The notes below the pieces were generated by a model that ran no database searches, had not been told where the DNA came from, and was given only the letters and a program-made list of their open reading frames with translations. From an uncultured Candidatus Binatia bacterium (GTDB lineage: Bacteria > Desulfobacterota > Binatia > Bin18), in assembly GCA_965200125.1 (NCBI GenBank), contig OZ241332.1, positions 2,830,438 to 2,894,437 on the forward strand: a stretch of DNA of 64,000 bases. Reading direction: 5' to 3'. Positions within the stretch are counted from its first letter, which is position 1; each line of letters opens with the position of its first letter. Positions 2,925 through 47,319 of the stretch are shown here, one piece after another. The translations under genes and the position numbers were made by a program.

Positions 2925-3956
2925 ATGACACGCGACACCGTTCGCCGACACGGAACGAAACCCGGGCTCTTGGCCATAACCATGCTCGTCTGCGGCCTGT
3001 GCCTGACGTGGCGTGGCGCGGCCGCGGACGAGGTCATCGCCACGGTCGGCGATACCCCGATCACCGACGCCGACATCGCCCCGCACGTCAAAGGCCCGCT
3101 GCTGCGGCTGAACACGCAGATCTACGAAGTCAAGAAGCGCGCGGCCGACGCGATCATCGACGCCCGCCTGATCGATGAAGAGGCCGCCCGCCGCGGCATC
3201 GGCAGGACGCAACTGCTGCAGCGGGAAGTGGACGAGAAGACCGGGACGGTCGGCGACGCCGCGGTCGAGGCGTATTACGACGCCAACGCGGCACAATTCG
3301 ACGGGAAGCCGTTGGAAGAGATCCGCGACCGGCTCACGGCCGCGCTCCAGGCGCAAGCCCGGGCCGAACGCCAAGCCGCGTTTACCGCGGAGCTGCGCAA
3401 GAACGTCGCCATCGACTTCGCCCTGAGCCCGCCCCTGGTCGAGGTGCCGGTCGGCGCGGCGCCGACCCGGGGGCCGGCCGACGCCCCGGTGACGCTGGTC
3501 GAGTTCTCCGACTATCAATGACCCTACTGCGCCCGAGTGCAGGCTGCACTCACCCGCCTTCGCGCAACCTATCCGGACACGCTCCGCGTCGTCTTCAAGG
3601 ATTTTCCGCTCGCCCATATTCACCCGCAGGCGCACACCGCGGCACAGGCCGCGCGCTGCGCCGGCGACCAGAACAAGTACTGGGAGTACCACGACGTGCT
3701 GTTCGCCCACACCGACGCGCTGGAACCCGATCACCTCAAGGGCTATGCGACCGACGTCGGGCTCGACGCCGCCGAGTTCGCCGCCTGTCTGGAAGAGCAG
3801 ACCCACGCGGCGGCCGTGGATCGAGACTCGGCACTCGGGACGCAACTCGGGGTCACCGGCACGCCGGCCTTCTTCGTCAACGGCCGCTTCATGTCCGGCG
3901 CCCAGTCGTACGCGACCTTCGTCGATGCGGTCGAGGAAGCCCTGGCGCGCCGATAA
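2925..3956 (+). CDS. Periplasmic DsbA-family thiol:disulfide oxidoreductase (SurA-like N-terminal region plus thioredoxin fold) with an in-frame TGA at 3519-3521 at the first Cys position of the CxxC motif. Best read as a selenocysteine selenoprotein (U-P-Y-C).
   Basis: Track ORFs 2832..3521 and 3537..3956 share one frame. Sequence reads VTLVEFSDYQ-TGA-PYCARVQ against the canonical DsbA EFSDYQCPYC. RBS GGAGGAGGG before the ATG at 2925. Signal-peptide-like N-terminus LLAITMLVCGLCLTWRGAAA. Confidence 0.65.
3535..3551 (+). promoter_or_regulatory. Putative bacterial SECIS-like hairpin gagtgcaGGCtgcactc (7-bp stem, GGC loop), 14 nt downstream of the in-frame TGA.
   Basis: Perfect inverted repeat read in the sequence. 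Resembles the E. coli fdhF SECIS apical element GUUGCAGGUCUGCAC. Confidence 0.45.
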
Positions 3957-4019
3957 CGGCTCCTCACCGCGGGCGCGCGGCGCGCCGGACGGGAAATAGT
4001 TGGCGCTCCGAAAACGCGT

Positions 4020-5267
4020 GTGGTAAAGCGTCGCCGCATGTCAGCCAGGAAAGCCAAGGCCGAACGCCGGGCCGCGGCCGAGCGCCAGACCGAACGAACG
4101 CCCGACGGTCGGGCCGCTCAGCGCGGCCCCGGCCGGGCGCTGTGGGCCGTGCGCGGCCTCGCCGGAATCGGCCTCGGGCTGGCTGGTCATCTGACCCTGC
4201 TGCATTACCAGGCCGGTGCAACGGGCGAGATCGAGTCGGCGCTGTGCGGCGCGGGCGCCACGGTCAACTGCAATCTGGTGCTGGGCAGCGCGTACGCCAC
4301 GCTGTTCGGCTGGCCGATCGCGCTGTACGCCGCGGCGACGTACGCCGCGCTGCTGGCCGGGACGTTTCTGGCGACGCTGTGGCCCGCGCTGTTGCTGTGC
4401 GGCTGGGCGTTCGTCTTTTCGGTGTACCTGGCAGCGCTGTCCTTTTTCGGCATCGGCGCGGTGTGCCCGCTGTGTACCGCGTTGTACGTCGTGAACCTCG
4501 GGCTCGCCGGCTGCGCCGCGCTGCTGGGACGCGCGACCGGCAGCGTGAGCGGAGCCGGACTCGGTTTCGCGGCGCTGGGCTTCGGCGTGGCGTTGGCCGG
4601 CATCGGCCTGACCCAGGCGCGCGACGCGGCCTTCGTCACCCCGCCGCAGGATTTTCTGGCCCCCGCGGCCGAAGACATGGACGCCGGCTTCGTGCGCTAT
4701 TACTACGAGCAGCCCGCGGTCGTGTTGCGCGGGGAGGAACGCCACGTCAAAGGCCCGGCCGACGCGGCGCTGACCCTGCACGAATTCGTCGATTTCCGCT
4801 GCCCGCAGTGCGCCATCGCCAGCGAGACGCTCCACAAGTTCCAGCGCGCCAACCCCGACGACGTGCGCCTCGTGTTCCGGCACTATCCGCTCGACCGCGG
4901 CTGTAACTCCGGCATGCAGAACCAGGTCCATCCCGGGGCGTGCGCCGCGGCCATGGCGGCCGAATGCGCGGGGGAGCAGGGGAAGTTCTGGGAGTATGCC
5001 GACCTGCTGTTCGCGGATCAGACCCGCTTCGCCCGCGCCGACTTCGAGGCGCACGCGGAGGCGCTCCGCCTGGACCTCGAGGGGTTTCGCGCCTGTCTGG
5101 ACGAGACGCGCATCCGGGAGTTGGTCCGCGCCGACATCGCCGAAGCCGAGCGCATCGAAATCCGGGCCACGCCGACCCTGGTCGCCAACGGCCGGCTGAT
5201 TCAGGGCGTGCCGCCGGCCGGTAAACTGGCCACGCTCGTGACCCTCGTGAAAACGCAGACGAACTGA
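4020..5267 (+). CDS. VKOR (vitamin K epoxide reductase) membrane domain fused to a C-terminal DsbA-like thioredoxin domain.
   Basis: Multi-TM region with CPLC plus a C-terminal FVDFRCPQC...HYPL domain. Start is ambiguous (GTG 4020 or ATG 4038). Confidence 0.75.
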   Translation: MVKRRRMSARKAKAERRAAAERQTERTPDGRAAQRGPGRALWAVRGLAGIGLGLAGHLTLLHYQAGATGEIESALCGAGATVNCNLVLGSAYATLFGWPIALYAAATYAALLAGTFLATLWPALLLCGWAFVFSVYLAALSFFGIGAVCPLCTALYVVNLGLAGCAALLGRATGSVSGAGLGFAALGFGVALAGIGLTQARDAAFVTPPQDFLAPAAEDMDAGFVRYYYEQPAVVLRGEERHVKGPADAALTLHEFVDFRCPQCAIASETLHKFQRANPDDVRLVFRHYPLDRGCNSGMQNQVHPGACAAAMAAECAGEQGKFWEYADLLFADQTRFARADFEAHAEALRLDLEGFRACLDETRIRELVRADIAEAERIEIRATPTLVANGRLIQGVPPAGKLATLVTLVKTQTN

Positions 5268-5282
5268 CCGGAGCGGCGCGCT

Positions 5283-45631: not shown

Positions 45632-45702
45632 ACCAGGAAAGACGAAGCGTCCCTTTCGACCGTGCACGTCTCATACCGTACGTTTCCCCACGGACACACG
45701 CC

Positions 45703-46755
45703 ATGCCCGACACCGTAGAGACCGACCTCGACGCCATTGAGTATTATTTCGCGCAGGGTCTGACCGACGGGCTGCCGGTCGTGCCGCCGACCGAAGCCCG
45801 CGTGCGCGCCATGCTGGACGCCACGCCAAGGCCGGCGGAAGACATCGTGGCCCTCGTGCCGCCCAACTTCGGCGCCGCCACGGTCGAGAAGATCGCGGTC
45901 AACGCGGTCATGGCCGGCTGCCGACCCGATTATCTGCCGGTCGTGATCGCCGGTGTGCAGGCCATGTGTGACGAGCGGACCAATCTGCACGGCGTGCAGG
46001 GGACGACGCATACCGCCACGCCGCTGTTCATCGTGAACGGGCCGATCCGCGGCCGCCTGGACGTCAACTGCGCCGCGGGCGTGTTCGGTGCCGGCTGGCG
46101 GGCGAATGCGACCATCGGCAGGGCGTTGCGCCTCATCATGATGCACCTCGGGGGCGCGCGTCCGGGCGAAATCGACAAATCGACGATGGGCCATCCCGGC
46201 AAATACGCCTACTGCATCGGCGAGTACGAGGAGGAAAATCCCTGGGAGCCGTTGCACGTCGAACACGGTTTTACCGCGGAGCAGAGCACCGTCAGCGTGT
46301 ACTGCTGCGATGCGCCGCAGTGCGTGAGCAACCACGGCAGCCGCACCGCGGCCGGCATTCTGGACACCATCGGCGCCAGCATGGCCGTCGGCTGGAGCGA
46401 CAAGACCTATCTGGTCGGCAACCATCTGATCGTGCTGGGGCCGGAGCACGCGCGCAGCCTTGCCGGCGACGGCCTGAACAAGGCGGACGTCAAACGCTAC
46501 CTGTTCGAGCATGTGCGCCGGCCGCTGCGCGAACTGCTGCCCGGGCCGGACGGCAGCGAAGGGCTCAACCGCGACCGCCTGCCGGATTGGCTCGACGCCA
46601 CGGACGACGCGACCCCGGTCCCCAAGGTCGCGTCCGCGGACGACATCATCCTCGTCGTGGCCGGCGGCACCGCGGGCCGCTTCTCCGTCCACATGTGCGG
46701 CTGGGGCGGCGGCGCGGGTTTGAGCCGGCTGGTCACCGTCCCGATCGACGCCTGA
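45703..46755 (+). CDS. Conserved hypothetical protein (Cys-rich segment CCDAPQC), immediately upstream of the UGSC selenoprotein gene.
   Basis: 351-aa ORF with the expected codon bias. No RBS. Family not recognised. Confidence 0.5.
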   Translation: MPDTVETDLDAIEYYFAQGLTDGLPVVPPTEARVRAMLDATPRPAEDIVALVPPNFGAATVEKIAVNAVMAGCRPDYLPVVIAGVQAMCDERTNLHGVQGTTHTATPLFIVNGPIRGRLDVNCAAGVFGAGWRANATIGRALRLIMMHLGGARPGEIDKSTMGHPGKYAYCIGEYEEENPWEPLHVEHGFTAEQSTVSVYCCDAPQCVSNHGSRTAAGILDTIGASMAVGWSDKTYLVGNHLIVLGPEHARSLAGDGLNKADVKRYLFEHVRRPLRELLPGPDGSEGLNRDRLPDWLDATDDATPVPKVASADDIILVVAGGTAGRFSVHMCGWGGGAGLSRLVTVPIDA

Positions 46756-46785
46756 ACGAACGCATCATCTCGAGGAGGAAGATCG

Positions 46786-47319
46786 ATGACGAAACTCTAC
46801 GATCCGACCGCCGCGCCACCGCGTGCCGGTGCGAGTCTGGCCGCACGACTGCCCGACCTGCGCGGCAAGACCGTCGGCCTGCTGGACATCAGTAAGGCCA
46901 AGGGCAATTTCTTTCTGGACCGTGTCGCCGCGTCGCTGGCCGAGAGCCATGCGCCGCGCGAGATCGTCCGGCGCACCAAACCGACGTTCGCCCGCCCGGC
47001 CCCAGACGCGTTGCGGAACGAATTGGCGGAGCGCTGCGACGTTGTGGTCGAAGCGCTGGCCGATTGAGGGTCCTGTACGACGTGCAGTGTGCACGACGGC
47101 ATCTTCTTCGAGAACGCGGGCATCCCGTCCGCGGTATTCGCCACGACCGAGTTTTCCAACGCCGCCCTTGCACAGGCCAAGGCGCTGGGGCTGCCGCAGT
47201 TCCGCGTCATTCTGGTCGAACACCCGATTCAGCCGTTGACCCCGGAAGAGGTGCACGGCCGCGCCGACGCCGTGTTCGATCGCATGTTGGAAACCGTGAC
47301 GGCCCGACCGGCCGGCTGA
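46786..47319 (+). CDS. UGSC-family selenoprotein. In-frame TGA at 47065-47067 followed by GGG TCC TGT, giving Asp-U-G-S-C-T-T-C.
   Basis: Track ORFs 46786..47067 and 47089..47319 share one frame. Strong GAGGAGGAAG RBS before the ATG at 46786. The U-G-S-C motif defines this family. Confidence 0.6.
47081..47095 (+). promoter_or_regulatory. Putative SECIS-like hairpin cgtgca-GTG-tgcacg, 13 nt downstream of the in-frame TGA.
   Basis: Perfect 6-bp stem. Shares the GTGCA-Gnn-TGCAC core with the hairpin at 3535-3551. Confidence 0.4.

Follow-up and report, generated by a model that had tools for sequence, protein, structure and literature searches.

Two in-frame TGA codons and their hairpins

The stretch of DNA analyzed here (the window; 64,000 nt, contig OZ241332.1, positions 2,830,438 to 2,894,437) belongs to an uncultured Candidatus Binatia bacterium whose genome (GCA_965200125.1) is a single contig of 4.13 Mb with 64.9% GC. 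It carries two genes, one for a DsbA-like protein (site 1) and one for a protein of the UGSC family (site 2), in each of which a TGA is the sole break in an otherwise open reading frame (ORF) and is followed by a short hairpin; we read these TGAs as, almost certainly, selenocysteine (Sec, U) codons and the hairpins as their selenocysteine insertion sequence (SECIS) elements (Table 1). With TGA translated as U, site 1 reads ...FSDYQ-U-PYCARVQAAL... and site 2 reads ...EALAD-U-GSCTTCSVHD..., the peptide spanning Sec at site 2 being EALAD-U-GSCTTCSVHDGIFFENAGIPSAVFATTEFSNAALAQAK. The hairpins that a sequence-only reading of the window had placed downstream of the two TGAs are indeed there, GAGTGCAGGCTGCACTC at site 1 and CGTGCAGTGTGCACG at site 2, each occurring once in the window and in none of 100 shuffles. 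The common spacing of 13-14 nt reported in that reading also holds, as both hairpins begin 13 nt past the TGA, the gap from TGA to the GTGCA core being 15 nt at site 1 and 14 nt at site 2. The two hairpins occupy different codon phases. Local folding returned perfect stems of 7 bp (site 1) and 6 bp (site 2) closed by the triloops GGC and GUG, with minimal hairpin energies of -8.4 kcal/mol (z = -2.8) and -6.3 kcal/mol (z = -2.4), respectively.

Table 1. Features of the window and further selenoprotein genes of the source genome. Hairpin positions marked + are counted with the U of UGA as 1; coordinates are those of the window unless marked genome.
Feature	Position	Strand	Remarks
SurA_N-like plus DsbA/thioredoxin-fold selenoprotein gene (site 1), product predicted to be exported, 374 amino acids	2832-3956	+	Predicted active site U230-P-Y-C233; TAA stop 3954-3956
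Predicted Sec codon (UGA), DsbA-like gene	3519-3521	+	First-Cys position of CxxC
Predicted SECIS hairpin, site 1	3535-3551	+	7-bp stem GAGUGCA/UGCACUC, apical loop GGC at +24 to +26
VKOR-DsbA fusion gene	4020-5267	+	Ordinary CPQC site; Pfam VKOR 1.7e-17, Thioredoxin_4 1e-23, DSBA 4.6e-17
TGA ending Lactamase_B_2 protein gene (MBL hydrolase)	20717..20715	-	In-frame ATG 9 nt on opens a separate PPOX-like ORF
TGA ending Zinc-ADH gene	26976..26974	-	In-frame ATG 57 nt on, after GGAGGAG, opens a small separate ORF
UGSC-family selenoprotein gene (site 2), 177 amino acids	46786-47319	+	Predicted active site U94-G-S-C97; terminates at a second, ordinary TGA, 47317-47319
Predicted Sec codon (UGA), UGSC gene	47065-47067	+	
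Predicted SECIS hairpin, site 2	47081-47095	+	6-bp stem CGUGCA/UGCACG, apical loop GUG at +23 to +25
Five further UGSC paralogues	genome 3527011; 3182255; 1913142; 1636582; 893212	+; -; -; -; -	TGA and SECIS hairpin, same register
Other selenoprotein genes	genome 3439045; 1166223; 3528904; 1943468; 2542614; 2723426; 2297669; 24227	+; -; -; +; +; +; -; -	Three AhpC/TSA peroxiredoxins (one PDZ-fused), one CMD/AhpD-like, one rhodanese, three GRDB/PrdB-like

The DsbA-like gene of site 1

Two Pfam domains run across the TGA of site 1, namely Thioredoxin_4 (1.1e-29, residues 211-368) and DSBA (1.9e-27), the latter with 96.8 bits against a Pfam cut-off of 25.6, which places the protein in DsbA-like selenoprotein form 1 (PF01323, UxxC). 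In the alignment, U230-P-Y-C matches the C-P-[YF]-C of cysteine (Cys) forms, and the TGA itself aligns with TGC/TGT of Cys-form homologues. The N-terminal SurA_N-like region is weak (20.4 bits). The best NCBIfam match, NF041057 (Rcas_1661 thioredoxin-like (seleno)lipoprotein), reaches 108.4 bits, below the equivalog cut-off of 190, and covers the C-terminal domain only, so that the protein is a relative of this family and not a member. It has in common with DsbA-like form 1 and with Rcas_1661 the DsbA/Thioredoxin_4 fold and a predicted Sec for the first Cys of CxxC, but differs from them in its weak SurA_N-like N terminus and in the VKOR-DsbA fusion encoded next door. The nearest named relative, the Candidatus Binatia metagenome-assembled genome OZ251505.1, shows 77% identity over the site 1 protein. 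The adjacent VKOR-DsbA fusion is likely the quinone-linked reoxidizing partner of the Sec-containing DsbA in the same operon. A second DsbA-like match adjoins the Sec gene in nearly every member of the genus, an arrangement suggestive of a conserved oxidative-folding module of two genes, one for a selenium DsbA and the other for a sulfur DsbA.

Conservation of site 1 was followed in a survey of 60 related genomes. One TGA is present at the Sec codon in every genus member where the orthologue was found, as well as in several other genera of the family, and more distant orthologues have Cys at this position. Whether hairpins are conserved in orthologous loci had been named in the sequence-only reading as one of the points on which its proposal would stand or fall; both are, with compensatory stem changes, in 31 orthologues for site 1 and in 28 or more for site 2. 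Over 54 nt from the TGA of the 31 Sec-form site 1 genes, the 7-bp helix has standard pairs in 99.5% of cells (29 distinct orthologues), and its covariation score lies above all 500 shuffles (0/500 reach it) and all slid controls. At pair 21-29, for example, G-C is replaced by U-A (three distinct sequences), A-U (two), or G-U (one), and wobble changes occur at pairs 18-32 and 20-30. All 31 genes have G24 as the base that opens the loop; the next loop base is U in most and G here. The key control is provided by the Cys-form homologues: loci L040, L041, and L043 retain the A-R-V-Q peptide yet have the hairpin disrupted or gone, L040 and L043 keeping the whole C-P-Y-C-A-R-V-Q with a mismatched stem or none, and in more distant Cys forms the hairpin is wholly gone. 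The site 1 hairpin also contains codons that are rare in long ORFs of the source genome, namely CGA (4.9% of Arg codons), GCT (2.9% of Ala codons), and GCA (5.3% of Ala codons).

The UGSC gene of site 2

The site 2 protein matches the UGSC family over its full length and above both curated cut-offs, with 174.2 bits to Pfam PF24696 (cut-off 25; 3.5e-51, residues 4-172) and 165.7 bits to NCBIfam NF041046 (UGSC_fam; cut-off 125), and has the U-G-S-C motif of the family, of which it is therefore a member. UGSC-containing proteins are among the most abundant selenoprotein families of the Global Ocean Sampling (GOS) data, with 255 Sec against 21 Cys forms (PMC2398784); the almost constant presence of Sec is the same as seen here, and we find no substantive difference. 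UGSC homologues were found in 48 of 61 genomes, every one with TGA at the Sec position; Cys forms of UGSC, which are rare, turned up in none of the 60 relatives.

In 28 site 2 orthologues, the six codons ACG TGC AGT GTG CAC GAC are unchanged, and the codons flanking the hairpin drift synonymously (GGG/GGC/GGA, TCC/TCG/TCA, TGT/TGC, ACG/ACC/ACA, GGC/GGA/GGT/GGG, and TTC/TTT). A comparison of 42 UGSC genes, six of them the paralogues of the source genome, places the helix in register throughout, with five core pairs 100% paired and five of nine pairs changed on both sides. These changes include C-G to G-C (TGC...GTG becomes TGG...GTC), U-A to A-U (TGC...CAC becomes AGC...CTC), and, at locus L105, a fully synonymous exchange of G-C for A-U (ACG...CAC becomes ACA...CAT). 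G23 and U24 are invariant in the 42 genes, and therefore the eighth codon after the UGA is always NGU; at site 2 it is AGT, a rare codon (5.8% of Ser codons).

Comparison with bacterial SECIS elements

The consensus of bacterial SECIS (bSECIS) elements, which is that of Zhang and Gladyshev and has E. coli fdhF as its prototype, consists of a loop of 3-9 nt on a stem of 4-16 bp, a G as first or second loop base or as both, mostly in the form G[G/U], a UGA-to-loop spacing of 16-37 nt, and a minimum free energy (MFE) of -7.5 kcal/mol or lower (PMC13188914). Fold and SECIS-model comparison had been proposed in the sequence-only reading, and both hairpins agree with all constraints of this model, having 3-nt loops on their 7-bp and 6-bp stems, the loops GGC and GUG, UGA-to-loop spacings of 20 nt (site 1) and 19 nt (site 2), and energies of -13.0 (site 1) and -14.7 kcal/mol (site 2) for the 42 nt counted from the UGA.

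That reading had also likened the hairpins to the fdhF element, and reading E. coli K-12 fdhF directly from NC_000913 proved the comparison accurate. The fdhF loop G22 G23 U24 C25 sits on UGCA/UGCA; the 13-nt cores of fdhF (UGCAGGUCUGCAC) and site 1 (UGCAGGCUGCAC) differ by one U, deleted in site 1, and G23 and U24 of site 2 stand at the same distance from the UGA as in fdhF. In all cases the hairpin lies within the ORF directly 3' of the UGA and has a small apical loop starting with G[G/U], here 19-20 nt from the UGA. On the other hand, the loops described here have 3 nt and that of fdhF 4 nt, and the helices here are perfect and short (6-7 bp), with no bulged U equivalent to U17 of fdhF.

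Sec machinery and further selenoprotein genes

The sequence-only reading had concluded that the organism uses Sec, and the genome encodes the complete machinery, with all four genes of the Sec-decoding trait (selA, selB, selC, and selD). The tRNA-Sec scores 73.1 bits against a cut-off of 47 and is called by ARAGORN as tRNA-SeC with anticodon TCA; SelA (1e-153) is encoded directly beside it, SelB was found via its SECIS-binding wing domain (wing_3, 2.8e-22), and SelD scores 311.6 bits against a cut-off of 125. The SelD match (genome position 1363784-1364698, minus strand) sits in a 764-amino acid open frame with no internal stop, which may encode a fusion protein, e.g. like the Ndh-SelD fusions of the GOS study; this SelD is a non-Sec form.

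To look for further selenoprotein genes, the sequence-only reading had suggested scanning the genome for TGA-N11-14-GTGCAG. As a detector this motif was rejected, since its 151 occurrences equal the 151.5 expected by chance from independent frequencies; GTGCAGG after a TGA at genome position 3621142 (minus strand) marks two adjacent in-frame PmbA/TldD genes separated by an ordinary stop. A structural scan of the sequence behind every TGA, for a stem of at least 6 and a G[GU] loop at +20 to +25, gave 537 matches against 396-413 (about 406) in shuffled genomes, too unspecific by itself and specific only in combination with in-frame coding potential on both sides of the TGA. A coding filter on third-position GC alone let antisense frames in, and one that cut codon log-odds at 0.45 was so strict that true sites dropped out; a best-of-six-frames test was adopted. 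The strict hairpin with best-of-six coding on both sides of the TGA yielded 12 loci genome-wide, with U at a known redox position in 12 of 12. These loci all belong to known selenoprotein families, as confirmed by Pfam: besides site 1 there are five UGSC genes, three genes for GRDB/PrdB-like proteins (U-P-x-C), and one gene each for a peroxiredoxin, a CMD/AhpD-like protein (C-x-x-U), and a rhodanese (U-Q-G-G-I-R). Four more loci, with weaker or displaced hairpins, comprise the sixth UGSC gene, genes for two peroxiredoxins, and, as an unconfirmed candidate, a MerB-like ORF. The genome thus holds at least 15-16 selenoprotein genes, six of them of the UGSC family.

The MerB-like small ORF (genome 2797292, plus strand; Pfam MerB 5.1e-10) has its in-frame TGA in G-F-U-P-R-V-Q-F-F-C and a candidate hairpin GUACAG-UUCUU-CUGUAC whose loop contains no G; the published MerB-like selenoprotein SaoL, unlike this ORF, has a C-U motif. 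In-frame TGAs also occur at genome positions 2157296 (-), 188984 (-), 1224506 (+), and 343367 (-), in FGE-sulfatase-like, Fic-domain, type I secretion ABC-transporter-like, and restriction-enzyme-like ORFs, the first with Y-N-TGA-G-N where Y-x-W-G is usual. All four lack a redox motif and any clear SECIS element; nonsense mutations in pseudogenes, or errors of sequencing, are the probable cause.

Other in-frame TGAs of the window

Two further TGAs in frame with the next gene, at 20715 and 26974 (Table 1), behind a metallo-beta-lactamase (MBL) hydrolase and a zinc-dependent alcohol dehydrogenase (ADH), had been dismissed in the sequence-only reading as coincidences. They are in frame as described there, no SECIS-like hairpin follows either of them, and they are ordinary stops. 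A third such TGA, at window position 6668 on the plus strand, follows ...KTLGE and precedes an ATG nine codons on; it has no hairpin and no redox motif and is therefore an ordinary stop as well. A single RNA gene was detected in the window, a tRNA-Leu (CAA) at 29996-30081 on the minus strand.

Discussion

Taken together, the conservation of both codons, the covariation of both helices, the concentration of rare codons in both hairpins, and the Sec machinery of the genome indicate that the standard bacterial pathway almost certainly reads the two TGAs as Sec, with the hairpins serving as their SECIS elements. The site 1 product would then be a DsbA-like thiol-disulfide oxidoreductase that is exported and has a U-x-x-C site, and the site 2 product a cytoplasmic UGSC-family protein, presumably with a redox function. 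Both families are known selenoprotein families: the Sargasso Sea study (PMC1088965) described DsbA-like selenoproteins, a 2026 review lists them together with UGSC selenoproteins (PMC13188914), and the published motif of both is U-x-x-C (PMC1088965, PMC2398784, PMC13188914). By analogy with the established system of E. coli and Moorella, SelD would provide selenophosphate, SelA would convert Ser-tRNA(Sec) to Sec-tRNA(Sec), and SelB-GTP carrying Sec-tRNA(Sec) would use its C-terminal winged-helix domain to bind the hairpin, located within the coding sequence just 3' of the UGA, at its apical loop, and would so deliver Sec to the ribosome against competition from release factor 2. That the two hairpins bind SelB and direct Sec insertion is supported indirectly by their covariation and by the loss of the hairpin in Cys forms.

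Several observations weigh against this assignment. Folds of 60 nt are no stabler than shuffles (z = -0.5 for site 1 and +0.6 for site 2), and the thermodynamic signal is confined to the local hairpins. No curated Rfam model supports either hairpin, as expected for elements so short; searches of the full window at the gathering threshold, and of the surroundings of the two sites at E <= 10, returned no SECIS family, the sole match being a chance snoRNA at E = 6.6. Finally, most site 2 orthologues (loci L066-L091) have as their predicted MFE structure an alternative hairpin, GUGUACA...UGUGCAC with an 8-nt loop (window 47068-47095), which is mutually exclusive with the SECIS element; this alternative is probably not selected, because its 5' arm varies synonymously.

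The TGAs could in principle be real stops, arising from sequencing errors, pseudogenes, or split genes, with hairpins that are incidental or act as attenuators, and it is true that each TGA divides its frame into two listed ORFs and that TGA also terminates genes of this genome in the ordinary way, the UGSC gene itself among them. However, TGA occupies the same codon in 31 (site 1) and more than 100 (UGSC) homologous genes from 48-59 genomes, single Pfam domains run across it, it aligns with the catalytic Cys, and the full Sec machinery is present; nor does a U-tract follow either hairpin. Sequencing error, which the sequence-only reading had judged unlikely, is excluded by the retention of the TGA across dozens of related genomes, and the interpretation as real stops is effectively refuted. 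We regard it as similarly implausible that TGA has been generally reassigned to Trp or Gly (codes 4 or 25) instead of being read as Sec at specific sites. A few in-frame TGAs do occur where Trp might be expected, such as that of the FGE-sulfatase-like ORF at genome position 2157296 (-), but TGA terminates many well-defined genes, among them ADH, the MBL hydrolase, and UGSC itself, and only about a dozen in-frame TGAs combine two-sided coding with a hairpin, all of them replacing Cys in redox motifs. The only UGA-reading tRNA that was sought, tRNA-Sec (TCA), was found; a UGA suppressor tRNA of the Trp or Gly type was not searched for.

One claim of the sequence-only reading is not borne out as it was put, namely that the two genes converged on a common element, GTGCA-G(G/T)(C/G)-TGCAC. 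The arms of the two hairpins encode unrelated peptides, R-V-Q...A-L at site 1 and C-S-V-H at site 2, and the letters of the stem vary: compensated stem variants in orthologues and paralogues include GUUCA/UGAAC, GUACA/UGUAC, GUGGA/UCCAC, GAGCA/UGCUC, and AUGCA/UGCAU, and other selenoprotein genes of the genome have unrelated stems, such as GUUGCUUU-GGC-AAAGCAAC, UCCGUGC-GGC-GCACGGA, AUCAGUCC-GUC-GGACUGAU, and GGUCGCGG-GUU-CUGCGACC. A stronger version of the claim would make GTGCA-G(G/T)N-TGCAC a lineage-specific recognition sequence, preferred by SelB for its stem and closing pair and reached independently by two genes. In its favor, GTGCA-NNN-TGCAC occurs only four times in the 4.13-Mb genome, and three of these four sites are SECIS elements, lying 14-15 nt past the in-frame TGA of a selenoprotein gene (site 1, site 2, and the UGSC paralogue at genome position 893212, minus strand); furthermore, GCAG[G/U] is found in six of about 15 SECIS elements of the genome and in E. 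coli fdhF. Nevertheless, this is an improbable reading, since the stems of both genes covary freely in orthologues, the closing pairs of the SECIS elements of the genome vary (A-U, C-G, G-C, and U-A), two of the three SECIS sites with GTGCA-NNN-TGCAC are UGSC paralogues and hence not independent, and the letters GU-CA of the 5' arm at site 1 are set by the R-V-Q peptide, which is present in Cys forms too. In line with this, a covariance model of 39 UGSC hairpins gives site 2 a score of 33.4 bits and fails to retrieve site 1 among its 86 matches at E <= 10 in the window. What is conserved is the SECIS architecture, a short helix with an apical loop that begins G[G/U] at +21 to +25, and not the letters of the stem; the identical GUGCA/UGCAC stem of sites 1 and 2 is a coincidence within the SECIS class.

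Known families and a known recoding mechanism thus account for everything seen at these loci, which show nothing new in kind and open no new question. The practical value lies mainly in annotation: because standard gene calling breaks both genes at the TGA, into 229 and 139 amino acids at site 1 and 93 and 76 amino acids at site 2, the window and at least 14 other loci of the genome need Sec-aware annotation. The alignments also yield a clean record of natural covariation in two bacterial SECIS elements, and the genome documents extensive selenium use in an uncultured lineage, including a predicted selenium-containing periplasmic DsbA beside a VKOR-type reoxidase. On a more speculative note, SelB of this Candidatus Binatia-like lineage might work with an unusually minimal SECIS element, a bulge-less helix of 6-9 bp whose triloop, G[G/U]N, lies at +21 to +25, and for which the closing context GCA-G[G/U] would be a real preference; we hold out little expectation that this is so. 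If it were true, the SECIS element would dictate protein sequence, restricting the eighth codon of UGSC genes after the UGA to NGU and hence to Ser, Gly, or Cys, though AGU is rare, and the clade, with its six-fold, all-Sec expansion of the uncharacterized UGSC family, would be a useful model for the co-constraint of SECIS elements and the proteins in which they lie.

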